From Minisyncoccia bacterium (GTDB lineage Bacteria > Patescibacteriota > Minisyncoccia > Phycocordibacterales > JAKFXT01), in NCBI GenBank assembly GCA_041485465.1, contig JBGPJO010000001.1, positions 102,190 through 166,189 on the forward strand: DNA of 64,000 bases, in the 5' to 3' direction. Under the pieces are notes generated by a model. That model saw only the letters and a program-made list of their open reading frames with translations, was not told the origin of the DNA and ran no database searches. Made by a program: the position numbers and the translations under genes. Shown in pieces: positions 37,087 to 40,303 of this stretch (within the stretch, counting starts at the first letter, position 1; every line of letters starts with the position of its first letter).

Positions 37087-38034
37087 GTGTTGATGTATAA
37101 TGGCAAAACTATGTATGACCTCATCATCATCGGCGGAGGACCGGCGGGTGTATCAGCGGCAGTCTATGCCGCGCGGAAACGCTTAAAAACGGCGTTCATA
37201 TCGGAATCATTCGGCGGACAAAGTGTTGAGTCCGTCGGCGTTCAAAATTGGATCGGCACTGTTTCGATTTCCGGACCAGAGTTCGCAAAAGCTTTTGAAA
37301 CGCACTTAAAAGCGTACGCCGCTGACAGTGTCGACATAAAAGTGCCTGGACGCGCTACCCTTATAGAAAAAACTAACACCGGGTTCAAGGTTGAGACCGA
37401 CAAAAAAGAAACCTTCGAATCAAAAACGCTTTTCCTTGCAATCGGAAGTACGAGAAGGAAACTGACTGTACCAGGCGCGGAAAAACTCGAACATAAAGGG
37501 ATCACCTACTGCGCTTCCTGCGATGGCCCGCTTTTTTCTGACATGGATACCCTCGTCATTGGCGGCGGTAATGCCGCGTTTGAGACGGCGGCGCAACTTT
37601 TGGCATATACGAAAAGTGTGACACTTTTGAATCGCAGTGACGTATTTCGAGCCGATCCCTCGACCGTCGAGAAGGTACTCCGGAATCCAAAGGTGAAAGC
37701 CATTAAAAATGCTGATCTTATAAGTATCGAGGGGGACAATTTTGTCACGGGCATCACTTATAAAGACAAGAAATCGGGGGAAACAAAAAATCTTTCTGTT
37801 CAGGGAGTATTTGTCGAAATAGGACTCATTCCATCAACCACCATTGTAAAAGAGTTGGTCGCAATGAATGAAATAGGTCAGATTAAAGTTGATCCGAGAA
37901 CTCAAGCGACTTCAACCTTAGGCATCTGGGCAGCGGGCGATTGTACCGATGGTTTATACCACCAGAACAACATTGCGTCCGGAGACGCGGTAAAAGCGCT
38001 TGAGGATATCTATCTTCACTTGCACACAAAATAG
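37087..38034 (+). CDS. trxB: Thioredoxin reductase (likely start at Met 37111)
   Basis: YDLIIIGGGPAG (FAD), CASCDG redox-active disulfide, VIGGGNAAFE (NADPH). Confidence 0.9.
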   Translation: MLMYNGKTMYDLIIIGGGPAGVSAAVYAARKRLKTAFISESFGGQSVESVGVQNWIGTVSISGPEFAKAFETHLKAYAADSVDIKVPGRATLIEKTNTGFKVETDKKETFESKTLFLAIGSTRRKLTVPGAEKLEHKGITYCASCDGPLFSDMDTLVIGGGNAAFETAAQLLAYTKSVTLLNRSDVFRADPSTVEKVLRNPKVKAIKNADLISIEGDNFVTGITYKDKKSGETKNLSVQGVFVEIGLIPSTTIVKELVAMNEIGQIKVDPRTQATSTLGIWAAGDCTDGLYHQNNIASGDAVKALEDIYLHLHTK

Positions 38035-38040
38035 TCTTTG

Positions 38041-38113
38041 TGCGCGGTAAGGGACTCGAACCCCTGGCCCTTCCCACGTCAAGGGAATGCTCTACCAACT
38101 GAGCTAACCGCGC
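38041..38113 (-). tRNA. tRNA-Val(GAC)
   Basis: Reverse complement gives gcgcggttagctcagttggtagagc...uuGACgu...ggttcgagtccc...accgcgca. Confidence 0.85.
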
Positions 38114-38162: not shown

Positions 38163-38657
38163 CTATAGCTGAATTGTATCCCCGATTTTAATTCCCTTTT
38201 CTTTCGCAAAACCAGCATCAACCTCAACTACGTAGCGCGCCTTATTTTTCGGCTCAAATATTTTTGGATATGTGTCGGGGCTAAGATTTTCAGAAATGTC
38301 GACAACTTTTAAATCGTCTCCTACCCAAATAATATCAATGCTAAATTTCATTTCTTTCATCCAAAACTGGTATCTGTCAGCGTAGTCAAAGACGAAAAGC
38401 ATTCCTTGATCTTGGACGAGTTTTTCACGTCCTGAAAGTCCCTGCTCGCGCATTATAGGAGTATCCTCCACTTCCACCTTAATTATCGTCGTTCCAATTA
38501 TTATAGTTTTCTCAAGAGGAGAACCACCCGGGAAAACGGAGTCTAAATTATTGGCGCTGTCGCTTGTCAGGGTGTCTTGATGAACATCTACAAACAATAA
38601 CCCCGCGACAATCACTGCCGATCCGAAGATTAAAATTTTACCAATGCTTTCTTTCAT
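38163..38657 (-). CDS. DUF192-domain secreted/membrane protein
   Basis: N-terminal TM, then GLSGRE..GMLFVF.....FWMKEM.FS.DIIWV..D..VV.I..........P.....YVVEV.AGF, which matches DUF192 (COG1430). Confidence 0.7.
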   Translation of the reverse strand: MKESIGKILIFGSAVIVAGLLFVDVHQDTLTSDSANNLDSVFPGGSPLEKTIIIGTTIIKVEVEDTPIMREQGLSGREKLVQDQGMLFVFDYADRYQFWMKEMKFSIDIIWVGDDLKVVDISENLSPDTYPKIFEPKNKARYVVEVDAGFAKEKGIKIGDTIQL

Positions 38658-38725
38658 GTCTTGTGCGGTGAGGGTCGGTCTGGAACCAACCCGCTCTCAT
38701 CAGTATAAGGGTATTCCAGAGAGCA
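38658..38725. repeat. Copy A of a ~65-nt conserved structured element, immediately 5' of the DUF192 start
   Basis: tgcggtgagggtcggtctggaaccaacccgCTCTCatcagtataagggtattccaGAGAG, compared with copy B. Confidence 0.6.
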
Positions 38726-38791
38726 AGCGTGTCGGCAAAAACTACGAGGAACGGTCGGAATCCTAAGTGAGAAAGAAGACGGCGGCAAATG

Positions 38792-39082
38792 TTAGAGATG
38801 GAAAAAGAAAACAGGAGCACATGCCGCAAGTGCGGCAACGATTTGAATCGCCAGAACAAAGAGCGCTTGCACGGGTCTTTGCGGCAACCATCTTATAGCG
38901 AAAAATGACACCATCAGTACTTCTAAAACCACCCAAATCTGAAAGAGATGTGCGCCCGTTCCCTCATCCGGCTCGCGGACGGGAGCGCCGAAGATTGCAA
39001 TACCAAAAACCCACGCCGCCAAAACGAGGAGGGATATTACGATTGGAATCCAAGCGCTCGGTTGTTTCAGTAGTGAGTTCAT
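38792..39082 (-). CDS. Hypothetical small membrane protein (96 aa, three predicted TM helices)
   Basis: Hydrophobic helices IPIVISLLVLAAWVFGIAIF, FQIWVVLEVLMVSFFAI and LFVLAIQIVAALAACAPVFFF; preceded by repeat copy B. Confidence 0.45.
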   Translation of the reverse strand: MNSLLKQPSAWIPIVISLLVLAAWVFGIAIFGAPVREPDEGTGAHLFQIWVVLEVLMVSFFAIRWLPQRPVQALFVLAIQIVAALAACAPVFFFHL

Positions 39083-39162
39083 ATGTTTTTAGAACCAATT
39101 GGGAGATCTGGAGGTTTCGGAGATTGCGGCATCCTGCAAAAATATAGTCGCTCTGCTCCTTA

Positions 39163-39232
39163 TTTTTGCGGTGAGGCTCGGTCAGGAACCAACCCGTTCC
39201 AAGCAATGTAAGGGTTTCTTGGCGAGTTAGCG
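39163..39232. repeat. Copy B of the ~65-nt conserved structured element
   Basis: tgcggtgaggctcggtcaggaaccaacccgttCCAAGcaatgtaagggtttCTTGGcgag. The hairpin stem covaries with copy A (ctctc/gagag versus ccaag/cttgg). Confidence 0.6.
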
Positions 39233-39345
39233 ACAAGACAAATTTAGGAGGGGCGGTCGTAGCCATATTCTTGCAATTTTAATATAAGTATGTTATACGA
39301 GATGTTAGAAAGTTTCGCTGAAATCTCTGCAACCTGACAGGAGAA

Positions 39346-39945
39346 TTGGAGATGTTTGAAAGAAAACAAGCTGCCGTTCCGGTGATTCCCCTACAACGTC
39401 CGACTCCGCGTTTGGCGATCGTTGGAAGCGAATTGCTCGGTCCATATGAGGCGATTGCACGGGAATTGAACTACAGTCCCGCCCATCTCCTCCAAGAGCA
39501 ACTGCTTCGGTTTCTCGCGGAGAACCAGATCCAGATCTACGATTACGATGCGGTCGACCATTATTTGGCCGCCATTGCCGAGAAGGTCGGAAAGGTTTGG
39601 GTCTGGCGCCCGTTGCGCAAGCAAGACACGCTGGACTGGAAGAATGAAAATGGCCACTGCCATTGGTGGGGACGAGCGCCAACCGGCGAGACAGGCCATG
39701 TGACCGCGGGCCACGGCAGTTGTCGGGCCAATGAGTGGACCTATCGTCCGTATCATCATGCAGTACCAGCGCCAATCCTGTGGAACGCCAAAAAAATCCA
39801 CGACGAATTCGGCGAGCGCGTGAAGTTCTTCGTCAGCGACTATGCCGTTCCAAAGCCCGATCCGTTCATCATGGTGACAGCACAGGACGTCGACAAGATC
39901 ATCTTCGGCGTCTGGGACGAACCAAGTTTCGGCACCAACAATTGA
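39346..39945 (+). CDS. Hypothetical protein in a GC-rich (about 55-58%) segment, probably horizontally acquired
   Basis: RBS ggag 4 nt upstream of the ATG; composition differs from flanking DNA (about 43-48% GC); no recognisable domain (WVWRPLRKQD..NGHCHWWG..). Confidence 0.4.
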   Translation: MEMFERKQAAVPVIPLQRPTPRLAIVGSELLGPYEAIARELNYSPAHLLQEQLLRFLAENQIQIYDYDAVDHYLAAIAEKVGKVWVWRPLRKQDTLDWKNENGHCHWWGRAPTGETGHVTAGHGSCRANEWTYRPYHHAVPAPILWNAKKIHDEFGERVKFFVSDYAVPKPDPFIMVTAQDVDKIIFGVWDEPSFGTNN

Positions 39946-40041
39946 TCGACACGACATCGATCGTAGAGCTCCGCACAATCGCGGGGCTCTTTTCTTTTTG
40001 ATGCGTTTCGGTCGCGTAACACCGTTTCACTAGACTACGGA

Positions 40042-40059
40042 GGTGAGAGGATTCGGTCA
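40042..40059. repeat. 18-nt exact duplicate of the tRNA-Ser(CGA) 3' end (cggaggtgagaggattcg), 155 bp from the tRNA
   Basis: Identical to 40217-40234 in the same orientation; att-like remnant. Confidence 0.6.
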
Positions 40060-40213
40060 CGAGTCACTAAGTCTTTTGTCTCACTTCGCTCACAAAAGTC
40101 TAAGTGCTCTCGACCCCGCCTCGGCGCTTCATCGTCCCCCGGACGCGCGCCTGCGACTTTCGAATCCTATCACTATAGTAATTTTCAGTATCAGAAGACA
40201 CTAAAAATTTCTA

Positions 40214-40303
40214 TGGCGGAGGTGAGAGGATTCGAACCTCTGATAGAGTTTCCCCTATACCGCATTTCGAGTGCGGCGCCTTCGACCACTCAGCCACACC
40301 TCC
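40214..40303 (-). tRNA. tRNA-Ser(CGA), type II, CCA encoded
   Basis: Reverse complement gives ggaggtgtggctgagtggtcgaaggc...cuCGAaa...long variable arm...ggttcgaatcctctcacctccgcca. Confidence 0.8.

Follow-up and report, generated by a model that had tools for sequence, protein, structure and literature searches.

Tyrosine integrases use att sites within tRNA genes, located in the T-loop or the anticodon-loop, and genomic islands may be found in tandem at a single tRNA. A dyad of 7-7-7 layout characterises the core sites of tyrosine recombinases and also the tRNA T-arm that such enzymes favour as a target. On Acinetobacter plasmids, genes flanked by XerC/D-type sites are known as pdif modules, while the junctions of gene cassettes are tightly packed and have the same orientation as the flanking genes. 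The genomes of CPR bacteria (Patescibacteria) are tiny, and the gain and loss of their accessory genes is poorly understood.

In a genome of this type we have identified a rare intergenic element of ~94 nt which occurs twice in the window (the whole 64-kb stretch of DNA that was analysed) and three more times in metagenome contigs (n=5). The element is undescribed, its copies form a small family, and nothing relevant was found in the literature on CPR repeat elements or integrons. Judging from sequence, we tentatively favour a DNA site of the att-like or cassette-junction type, built around a 7-7-7 dyad, any activity of the five-copy family being putative. An earlier note had described the two copies in the window as a conserved ~65-nt element with a covarying hairpin; the repeats are real, while neither the length nor the covariation was upheld.

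Extent and anatomy of the element

Copy A is located at 38664..38758 and copy B at 39167..39260, both on the minus strand (nhmmer with a profile of the five copies, E=3.4e-23, together with the alignment, and E=2.4e-26, respectively), so that they are in direct orientation with a spacing of 503 nt. Over 69 nt (38661-38729 / 39164-39232) they are 75% identical, with 30 matches in the first 33 nt, and a 27-nt core has only these two sites in the window when up to 3 mismatches are allowed and none in 100 shuffles. The previous estimate of ~65 nt was too short, since homology with the three metagenomic copies runs ~30 nt further in the 5' direction of the minus strand. Over the complete ~94-nt element the two copies share 69.5% identity, which argues that they are not recent duplicates of each other. 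Copy B is ~80% identical to the copies on contigs L093, L097 and L101 (80-91% for the three), and both A and B are nearer to the metagenomic copies than to one another. Copy A is the most diverged of the five, most strongly in its middle.

The pattern scan and the five-copy nhmmer profile revealed no additional copies in the 64-kb window. An exact-pattern scan of genome contigs with a 25-nt core (23 specified bases) gave 0 matches, four sub-patterns scanned against viral contigs matched only by chance, at places whose flanks are unrelated, and BLAST searches of phage and plasmid collections with the element returned nothing relevant. The census of five is a lower bound, as the metagenome collection scanned did not return contig L007, and with only five copies known every statistic is weak.

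Similarity breaks off sharply at both ends in all five copies, beyond which flanks and neighbouring genes are unrelated. Each copy has the orientation of its flanking genes and four of the five lie 0-53 nt behind a co-directional gene, with copy A starting 33 nt past the stop codon of the gene that precedes it. Packing is tight, the extremes being the L101 copy, which begins 0 nt after a stop codon, and copy A, which ends 6 nt before the ATG of a DUF192 gene, exactly as the earlier note had placed it. The position it gave for copy B (~80 nt upstream of a gene for a 96-aa protein) is also correct, the measured distance to the ATG being 84 nt. Primary sequence is conserved at both ends while the middle is variable, and the five copies show no compensatory changes. 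The minus-strand 5' end of the element is a conserved CGACCGTTCC block, the 3' block is nearly invariant throughout the family, and a GACCG motif is found at the 5' end and twice in the 3' block.

The 3' block contains a 7-7-7 dyad, which can be read directly from the sequence. In copy A (38672..38692, minus strand) it is imperfect and reads GGGTTGG-TTCCAGA-CCGACCC, followed by TCACCGCA, and in copy B (39175..39195, minus strand) GGGTTGG-TTCCTGA-CCGAGCC, where one arm substitution creates a G-G mismatch; the two spacers thus differ at a single base. The consensus GGGTTGG-TTCCWGA-CCGASCC, again followed by TCACCGCA, is present in all five copies. Its 9-bp helix is 93% paired, with 6 invariant pairs and 3 that are each broken in one copy, none of them compensated. 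A dyad core with a 6-8 bp spacer, as expected of an att-like site, is therefore found in every member of the family, which is a likeness of anatomy and not of function.

The bracketed gene and its surroundings

Copies B and A bracket a gene for a multi-pass membrane protein of 96 aa (38792..39082, minus strand), which belongs to a conserved accessory family with 158 homologues (E<=1e-3) in CPR and several other phyla and with the invariant motif D39 E40 G41 .. A44 H45. F47 Q48. W50. The homologues sit among co-directional small accessory genes. Those of CPR are often found just downstream of a tRNA-Ser on the same strand (L008, L013, L017, L021, L024, L029, L058, L063), and others in the same position relative to a tRNA-Asn (L027, L057, L061). 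Homologues beside tRNAs are flanked by direct repeats of other, lineage-specific types; the homologue in L008, for instance, is surrounded by a 26-nt repeat including TTGCCGCCAAAGAAAAACTTGA, in three copies. Just past the present stop codon, and out of frame, there is a relic of an alternative C-terminus (38763..38789, minus strand; FAAVFFLT* upon translation). In L080 this peptide forms the genuine C-terminus, and L009 carries the relic as well, again downstream of the gene. The 96-aa gene is accessory and has been horizontally shuffled.

The DUF192 gene (38163..38657, minus strand; Pfam PF02643, E=4e-30) is immediately downstream of copy A, and at this edge of the stretch tRNA-Val(gac) (38040..38113, minus strand) lies next to trxB (37087-38034, plus strand). 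At the other side, ~20 nt upstream of copy B, a sigma-70-like promoter match (CTAACA-16-TATATT; 39281..39308, minus strand) agrees with the consensus at 9/12 positions in a consensus scan, the only basis for this assignment. It is followed by an orphan ORF of 199 aa (39346..39945, plus strand), divergent from copy B and of higher G+C (0.54-0.57), and further on by tRNA-Ser(cga) (40214..40303, minus strand), which was identified by ARAGORN and Rfam. The 3' end of this tRNA is duplicated at 40038..40058 (minus strand; CGAATCCTCTCACCTCCG..TAG, without CCA), an 18-nt exact repeat and a weak match to a tRNA-Ser profile. We regard the duplicate, which lies 155 nt downstream of the tRNA gene, as a scar of att type. 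The sense orientation of the copies, the promoter-like site before copy B and the closeness to start codons would fit a transcribed element equally as well as a junction site.

The strain variant L007 matches the window fully up to 40212 and then diverges into an ORF for a large serine recombinase. The element that encodes it, with its junction at the tRNA-Ser 3' end, is carried by one strain and missing from another. Across both copies, L006 and L007 are identical to the window. In L101, from a related organism in which the C-terminus of TrxB is 75% identical at the amino-acid level, the element occupies the same neighbourhood, convergent to trxB, and yet stands between entirely different genes, which represents gene turnover around a persistent site. 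The stretch between trxB/tRNA-Val and tRNA-Ser is variable and recombinationally active.

Several observations point to a junction site. The element is discrete and occurs in five copies in unrelated contexts, its direct repeats stand on either side of an accessory gene which has been shuffled in other genomes, and the stretch carries three marks of integration (the tRNA-Ser duplicate, the recombinase of L007 and the relic C-terminus). We envisage that the element acts mainly at the DNA level, in site-specific recombination by a recombinase encoded elsewhere, so that the dyad in the 3' block would be the crossover core and the middle would be free to vary. Insertion of a unit of element plus gene (503 nt) at a resident copy would then create two hybrid sites. 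Left of the dyad spacer, identity to the metagenomic consensus is 65% for A and 77.5% for B, while to the right it is 100% for A and 93% for B. The consensus-like parts are thus the right of A and the left of B, which is the direction expected for hybrid sites, the right-hand difference being a single substitution.

The earlier suggestion that the copies might be the paired ends of a small mobile module fits these data better than a shared cis-regulatory RNA, as direct repeats surround a shuffled gene and integration scars are near, but transposon hallmarks were not found, so that the two copies are only putative ends of such a module; terminal inverted repeats, target duplication and an adjacent recombinase are all lacking, and there are no attC-type R''/R' boxes. 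No recombinase gene adjoins the element at any of the five copies, and no Phage_integrase domain, and hence no tyrosine recombinase, was detected among the ten ORFs of 233-411 aa that were scanned in the window. The sole recombinase seen, that of L007, is of the serine type and its junction is ~950 nt away. The 199-aa ORF was considered as a hidden recombinase and rejected, as it matches nothing in Pfam, PHROG, NCBIfam or PDB and lacks viral relatives; its AF2 model is unusable (pLDDT 34). An empty site, a presence/absence polymorphism of the 503-nt unit or a circular junction was not seen, with L006 and L007 being the same as the window. Relatives of the DUF192 gene were of no use in locating an empty site, since the nearest are <=59% identical and non-syntenic.

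Alternative explanations

The main rival is a transcribed, sequence-specific mRNA element in intergenic or untranslated regions that senses no ligand, but serves as a signal for binding, processing or stability, or as a rut-like Rho-loading tract followed by a hairpin, which would operate in sense orientation on the transcripts of operons. We consider this possible but doubtful. It would account for the co-orientation of all five copies with their flanking genes, for the location of four of them closely behind a co-directional gene, and for the promoter-like site ahead of B. The L097 copy is immediately followed by a hairpin resembling an intrinsic terminator and the L093 copy faces a convergent ORF, so that in neither of these two, out of five, does a co-directional gene begin right behind the element. 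The sense strand is rich in C (33-37%) and poor in G (18-23%, and 13-18% in the first 60 nt, for which little structure is predicted), it is sequence and not pairing that is conserved, and ~80% identity is retained with a relative whose flanking DNA is dissimilar. On the other hand, rut sites are not normally conserved in sequence, each of the three substitutions in the 3' hairpin disrupts a sense-strand pair, and the bracketing of a shuffled gene amid integration scars is left unexplained. Were the element to act as a signal in mRNA, it would add an undescribed cis element to a lineage in which hardly any regulatory RNAs have been characterised.

A cis-regulatory RNA shared by the two downstream genes, either a riboswitch or an attenuator, had been proposed on the basis of hairpin stems that differ between the copies and yet remain complementary. 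Both stems exist, CTCTC/GAGAG in copy A (38694-38698 with 38719-38723) and CCAAG/CTTGG in copy B (39199-39203 with 39218-39222). However, they are out of register: the flanks and the TAAGGGT motif of A and B align without gaps, yet the stems occupy different alignment columns, with the arms of A further out than those of B by 2 nt (5' arm on the plus strand) and 4 nt (3' arm on the plus strand). Among the five copies, the columns of the B stem are paired in 64% and those of the A stem in 48%, and shuffles perform no worse. The difference between the stems is not covariation. The three further copies, which might have supplied compensatory changes, did not do so, as the sense-strand consensus fold (alifold) has 14 pairs and 0 compensatory ones. 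Compared to column shuffles, alifold z-scores are about -1 on both strands (sense -0.7 to -1.1), and z-scores for folding of single sequences range from -2.3 to +0.4 (five copies, both strands). There is no significant conserved structure or unusual folding energy on either strand (n=5 copies). Rfam 15 gave no match at the gathering score and none at E<=10 for 38550-39400, and ARAGORN found no match on either copy.

The proposed RNA is not tied to a gene family either. The element is absent upstream of the 96-aa homologues in 80 genome loci and 3 contigs, and also upstream of the nearest DUF192 homologues, and so does not serve these genes as a dedicated leader. A 5'-leader riboswitch or attenuator for genes of small membrane or secreted proteins is, in our opinion, quite unlikely. 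Co-directional downstream products do start with a hydrophobic, transmembrane-like segment when judged by eye (the 96-aa protein, DUF192, a 153-aa product in L101 and a 175-aa product in L097), blocks of conserved sequence are interspersed with variable ones, the terminator-like hairpin stands behind the L097 copy, and copy A alone folds somewhat better than shuffles (z = -2.2). Against this stand the missing Rfam match, the lack of compensatory pairs, stems that shuffles reproduce, a G-poor 5' half which cannot form an aptamer-sized fold, the distance of just 6 nt between copy A and the ATG, and a position that is not constant before a coherent set of genes, as shown by the L093 and L097 copies and by the homologues that lack the leader. 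Overall, the evidence fits a recombination or junction site somewhat better than a riboswitch. The main practical result is a negative one: annotation of the element as a riboswitch should be avoided, and the ORFs which overlap it are repeat artefacts. The earlier note had already attributed the similar peptide ends of these ORFs to the repeat, and we found no signal of coding in them, with no family match and no peptide relatives.

A coding function of the element itself, as a gene fragment or small peptide, can also be rejected, since in whichever frame they are read the copies differ by non-synonymous substitutions, and neither start nor stop codons are conserved. With its open sense frame as a protein query, an indexed search gave no match at E<=10, and an exhaustive search retrieved nothing but the 100-aa ORF of the window itself and a repeat protein of 7433 aa, the latter a spurious match.

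A small RNA might instead be transcribed from the plus strand of the window, antisense to the operon and with two hairpins, but we see only a slim chance of this. The plus-strand consensus fold has 25 pairs, of which many are G-U (C-A mismatches on the other strand), with a single compensatory pair, where copy B has C-G for G-C, and several C/U changes opposite G, and its structure conservation index exceeds that of the sense strand (0.69-0.79 vs 0.57-0.64). Nevertheless, the fold is no better than that of column shuffles (z -1.0 to -1.2), single plus-strand sequences have z-scores of -0.8 to +0.4, copy A breaks many pairs, and neither a plus-strand promoter-like site nor a terminator is present next to either window copy. 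On the same strand, GGTCAGG..AAGCAG..AAGGC resembles helix 8 of SRP RNA; bacterial SRP RNA was rejected, as there is no Rfam match at E<=10 and the two copies are 503 nt apart.

That integrations targeted at a tRNA left the element as a degenerate 3' part of tRNA-Ser (variable arm, T arm and acceptor strand) likewise has little probability. By eye, the 3' block appears as a T arm whose loop has 7 nt, with CCTCACC-G-CA behind it, and resembles the CCTCACCGCCA end of E. coli tRNA-Ser(GCU). A true duplicate of a tRNA-Ser 3' end lies nearby, and partial tRNA-Ser duplicates are common in related loci (e.g. L021, L024). However, a profile of 13 CPR tRNA-Ser genes misses both copies at E<=100, yet finds the 19-nt scar at 40038-40056; ARAGORN and Rfam are negative; the loops of all 13 genes are TTCGAAT or TTCAAAT and not TTCCWGA; and the complementary 5' acceptor strand is missing.

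A functionless, decaying duplication or a chance resemblance, which the strong divergence in the middle of copy A might suggest, is very unlikely, as 100 shuffles produced 0 matches to the core, the three metagenomic copies share 80-91% identity with B although their contexts are unrelated, the 3' block hardly varies among the five copies, and A and B are each nearer to foreign copies than to each other. The template and variable region of a diversity-generating retroelement (DGR) were also considered as a pair and rejected, since the differences between A and B are not adenine-specific.

Comparison with known systems

The fluoride/crcB and guanidine-II mini-ykkC riboswitches resemble the element in being located upstream of genes for small membrane proteins and in having conserved blocks with variable spacers. 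The element differs from them in having no covarying fold, no Rfam match and no link to a gene family, and in two of its copies lacking a co-directional gene that starts directly after them. Dispersed repeats such as REP/BIME, ERIC, BOX and Correia are also short, noncoding and intergenic, and are transcribed within operons with possible effects on mRNA stability or termination. However, these have palindromic sequences or inverted termini and tens to hundreds of copies per genome, while the element is unsymmetrical; with only 2 adjacent copies in 64 kb and no overall palindrome, a REP- or ERIC-like repeat was rejected. An origin as a MITE or from an insertion sequence was excluded because the ends are not inverted repeats and the flanking bases differ in all five copies, and an IS200/IS605 PATE because the 5' flanks are not constant on the sense strand (ATTC, GCTA, ACCC, GACC, CTAG) or on the other strand (TTGT, TTTT, CAAT, TTTT, AATA). 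No HUH transposase is present near the element.

Like pdif modules, the locus has an accessory gene bracketed by short dyads of the recombinase-core type, and a host recombinase acting in trans is what we propose here. Sites similar to dif are 28 bp long with an 11-6-11 layout and occur as inverted pairs, whereas the element has 94 nt, is directly repeated and shows no dif similarity. With att sites in tRNA genes it shares the T-arm-like dyad (7-bp/7-nt/7-bp), direct repeats that bound the inserted DNA, and a location downstream of a tRNA-Ser with a 3'-end duplicate and a strain-variable integrative element. It is unlike these in that it is not detectably derived from a tRNA, is 94 nt long with 69.5% identity between its copies, and has no adjacent integrase.

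The differences from integrons are clear. The element has none of the R''/R' boxes of attC (RYYYAAC...GTTRRRY) and no hairpin across its whole length. Its ends, CGACCGTTCC and CCTCACCGCA, are not complementary and the predicted hairpins do not join them, so that an attC site was rejected; the best bottom-strand hairpin has ~4 G-T pairs in 16 and is not significant. Only two sites are present here, and an IntI-type tyrosine recombinase was not found in the window, an integron with adjacent IntI being rejected as neither the 199-aa ORF (no family match) nor the ten window ORFs (no Phage_integrase) could supply one.

There are also similarities to integron attC sites and to CALIN arrays, which lack an integrase. 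In both cases a short site (~60-140 nt) stands 3' of individual small genes that have no promoter; the sites share one orientation and are closely packed, their ends are conserved and the middle is variable, and one type of site flanks unrelated genes. As in these systems, a promoter-like site and a divergent ORF stand at the head of the pair in the window. If the element is a recombination junction, it would provide a cassette-like route by which small membrane-protein genes are exchanged beside tRNA genes. A system of gene-cassette exchange peculiar to Patescibacteria, in which single small genes such as that of the 96-aa membrane protein are swapped at ~94-nt junctions with a core (the 7-7-7 dyad) that mimics a T-arm, with the recombinase supplied in trans and seeding beside tRNA genes, is a speculation that we regard as rather unlikely; should it prove true, the system would be analogous to integrons in function while its sites are built differently.

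Copies and extent of the element

An earlier note described two conserved copies of an element of about 65 nt. The copies are real: direct repeats at 38661-38729 and 39164-39232, spaced by 503 nt, share 75% identity over 69 nt, with 30 of 33 positions identical in the first block. The 27-nt core GGTGAGGSTCGGTCWGGAACCAACCCG is found in the window at these two sites only, even with up to 3 mismatches permitted, and is absent from 100 shuffles. The length had to be revised. When metagenome contigs were scanned with TGGTTCCNGACCNNNCCTCACC, 14 loci matched: 11 are chance matches with unrelated flanks, and the other three (contigs L093, L097 and L101) show extended similarity to the element. The resulting five-copy alignment gives a length of about 94 nt, with an invariant CGACCG at the start, CCTCACCGC at the end, and an abrupt loss of similarity beyond both ends. 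According to a profile of the five copies, copy A spans 38664-38758 and copy B spans 39167-39260, both on the minus strand; the profile detected no additional copy in the window or in the approximately 110 fetched loci. Five is a lower bound, as L007, a JGI contig which carries both A and B, was not among the matches from the scanned metagenome collection.

A and B share only 69.5% identity. The three metagenomic copies agree with one another at 86-91% and with B at about 80%, and A is the outlier. From this pattern, A and B are old, separate members of the family and not the products of a recent duplication.

Neighbouring genes

The order along the minus strand is tRNA-Ser(cga) (40303-40214), an orphan 199-aa ORF on the opposite strand (39346-39945, plus, divergent from B), B, a 96-aa membrane-protein gene (39082-38792), A, the DUF192 gene (38657-38163) and tRNA-Val (38113-38040), with trxB (37087-38034, plus) converging on the stretch. 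The distances proposed previously, 6 nt from A to DUF192 and about 80 nt from B to the 96-aa gene, agree with the measured 6 and 84 nt. B is preceded by a promoter-like site and no co-directional gene, while A lies 33 nt past the 96-aa gene. The L101 copy begins 0 nt past the stop of a 72-aa gene and is followed after 19 nt by a 153-aa membrane protein; the L097 copy follows a 148-aa membrane protein and precedes, by 5 nt, a terminator-like hairpin and then a 175-aa ORF whose PKD matches are weak and below threshold; the L093 copy lies between a SEC-C protein and a convergent ORF. Neighbouring genes thus listed differ among all five copies.

The 96-aa ORF is a genuine gene, with 158 homologues in CPR (Patescibacteria-type) genomes and other phyla and an invariant DEG..AH.FQ.W motif; neither a Pfam domain nor a function is assigned to this family. 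The element occurs in none of 80 genome loci and none of 3 extra contigs with 96-aa homologues, nor was it found upstream of the nearest DUF192 homologues (identity at most 59%), so that a fixed link to either type of gene has to be abandoned.

Several further features were observed here. By eye, the four co-directional downstream products (96-aa, DUF192, 153-aa and 175-aa) all have an N-terminal hydrophobic, transmembrane-like segment, which may just reflect typical island cargo. The leader of the 96-aa gene contains a 17-codon upstream ORF (39131-39080, minus; ATGCCGCAATCTCCGAAACC...ATATGA), which ends in an ATGA overlapping the start codon of that gene, possibly by chance. The 199-aa ORF has a G+C of 0.54-0.57, above its surroundings, and carries HCHWW and YHH motifs of unassigned meaning; it has no match in Pfam, PHROG, NCBIfam or PDB and no viral-contig relatives, and its AF2 single-sequence model (pLDDT 34) is unusable.

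The orientation of the element is that of the flanking genes in all five cases, and four copies sit 0-53 nt past a co-directional gene. The DNA junction site which we tentatively favour has one main rival, a sequence-specific signal that would be transcribed from an intergenic or UTR position. The constant sense orientation, the C-rich and G-poor sense (minus) strand, the copy just before a terminator-like hairpin and the copy that ends a transcription unit facing a convergent ORF all speak for such a signal, which we regard as possible, with perhaps one chance in a few.

Pairing potential and known families

The earlier note also claimed a covarying hairpin. Both stems are present, CTCTC/GAGAG in A (38694-38698 with 38719-38723) and CCAAG/CTTGG in B (39199-39203 with 39218-39222), but the covariation is not: when A and B are aligned, gaps are needed neither in the flanking blocks nor in the TAAGGGT motif that they share, and in this alignment the two stems occupy different columns. 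Across the five copies, pairing in the B stem columns is 64%, with one double change, which 430 of 500 shuffles equal or better, and in the A stem columns it is 48%. The consensus fold of the sense strand has 14 pairs, essentially one hairpin, with no compensatory change; that of the antisense (plus) strand has 25 pairs in two hairpins, many of them G-U, with one. Alifold z-scores against column shuffles are -0.7 to -1.1 (sense) and -1.0 to -1.2 (antisense), the observed energy being matched by 12-26% of the shuffles, and single-sequence folding of 100-nt segments gives z from -2.3 to +0.4 and from -0.8 to +0.4, respectively. In a 9-bp 3' hairpin, all three substitutions break sense-strand pairs. 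Statistically, the five copies thus give no sign of selection for an RNA structure, be it on the sense or on the antisense strand.

A riboswitch or attenuator, as suggested earlier, is not supported, since the structure is no better than in shuffles and no gene family is tied to it; we consider it unlikely. An antisense sRNA, read from the strand with the two hairpins, is slightly more doubtful still. Rfam 15 has no match at gathering scores, and none at E<=10 with the search restricted to 38550-39400; phage and plasmid collections and IMG/VR contain no matches beyond chance.

The minus-strand 3' block, GGGTTGG-TTCCWGA-CCGASCC-TCACCGCA, resembles by eye the T arm and acceptor strand of tRNA-Ser. 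A relic of this tRNA is about as improbable as an antisense sRNA: a profile of 13 tRNA-Ser genes from the window and related CPR loci has no match on A or B even at E<=100, and the loops of all real tRNA-Ser genes are TTCGAAT or TTCAAAT while that of the element is TTCCWGA. The same profile detects a genuine 19-nt tRNA-Ser scar (40038-40056). ARAGORN reports neither a tRNA nor a tmRNA at the element.

Recombination and the nature of the element

The stretch around A and B is recombinationally active. A duplicate of the 3'-terminal 18-21 nt of tRNA-Ser(cga), lacking the CCA, lies at 40038-40058 (minus; CGAATCCTCTCACCTCCG..TAG), 155 nt downstream of the tRNA. It is an att-type scar of the classic kind and delimits a short remnant (40061-40213). 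Between 37912 and 40212, contig L007 matches the window at 100% identity; it departs at 40212/40213, the tRNA-Ser 3' end, where the tRNA is replaced by recombinase sequence (L007 1-979) encoding the C-terminal two-thirds of a large serine recombinase with Recombinase and Zn_ribbon_recom domains. Because L007 diverges there into a recombinase, the population is polymorphic for an integrative element at this position; the window has the appearance of an empty site, and L007 that of an occupied one, for an element targeting the tRNA-Ser 3' end. The recombinase ORF extends 21 nt into the DNA shared with the window.

Directly past its stop codon, the 96-aa gene is followed by a relic in another frame, FAAVFFLT* (38763-38789, minus), which is the true C-terminus in other family members (locus L080, 3248-3272) and recurs as LAPVFFLT* downstream of the homologue in locus L009 (about 2857-2884). 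The CPR genes seem to have gained a new C-terminal end (…ACAPVF[FY]F[HK]L*), displacing the old one. Contig L101 opens with a trxB 3' end (3-146) whose product is 75% identical to that of the window (37894-38037), and is therefore a partly syntenic contig of a relative; its element has the same position convergent to trxB but different genes around it, those between trxB and the element being entirely different, which is gene turnover around a persisting element.

CPR homologues of the 96-aa gene very often lie 2-1200 nt downstream of tRNA-Ser (loci L008, L013, L017, L021, L024, L029, L058 and L063) or tRNA-Asn (L027, L057 and L061) on the same strand, in L013 with the ATG 2 nt past the CCA end. 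Around them are co-directional small accessory genes and other, lineage-specific direct repeats. A different repeat including TTGCCGCCAAAGAAAAACTTGA directly flanks the 96-aa gene and small neighbours on both sides in several CPR MAGs (L008 2066, 2970 and 3301; L010 3302; L021 2155 and 2708; L090 3454 and 3970), and the 32-nt CCGCCAGTTGGGAAATGAAGTCATTGGCTCGC follows tRNA-Ser in L008, with a second copy 1.6 kb away, and is present in L010, L021 and L090. Both resemble cassette or small-island junctions in other lineages. Partial duplicates of the tRNA-Ser 3' half, from anticodon loop to CCA, also follow the intact gene directly and in tandem, with almost no intervening DNA (L021 1823-1879 and 1891-1947; L024 455-505 and 574-624).

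Against a relative whose remaining non-coding DNA is not similar to the window, identity of the element is still about 80%, and across the five copies the 3' block of about 30 nt hardly varies. The element is under constraint, in the primary sequence of both ends and not in pairing; a functionless repeat is very improbable. A near-invariant 7-7-7 imperfect dyad is followed by TCACCGCA, the middle is free, and a GACCG motif at the 5' end has two further occurrences in the 3' block. This anatomy fits a recombinase core-type site with accessory sequence, and the 7-7-7 geometry is that of the tRNA T-arm targets of tyrosine integrases. A and B, as direct repeats around a shuffled accessory gene, fit a junction as well, and there is a weak mosaic in which the left part of B and the right part of A are consensus-like while the left part of A and the right part of B have diverged. 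For these reasons we tentatively favour, at somewhat less than even chances, a putative att-like or cassette-junction DNA site used in trans, where a recombinase encoded elsewhere would use the element as a junction. No recombinase gene adjoins any of the five copies, none of 10 scanned window ORFs of 233-411 aa is a tyrosine recombinase, and neither an empty site for the element-bracketed unit nor a circle was seen. We conclude that this CPR intergenic element is real and undescribed and appears to be rare. On present evidence it is not a riboswitch, and it is best filed with the short junction and repeat elements linked to gene mobility.
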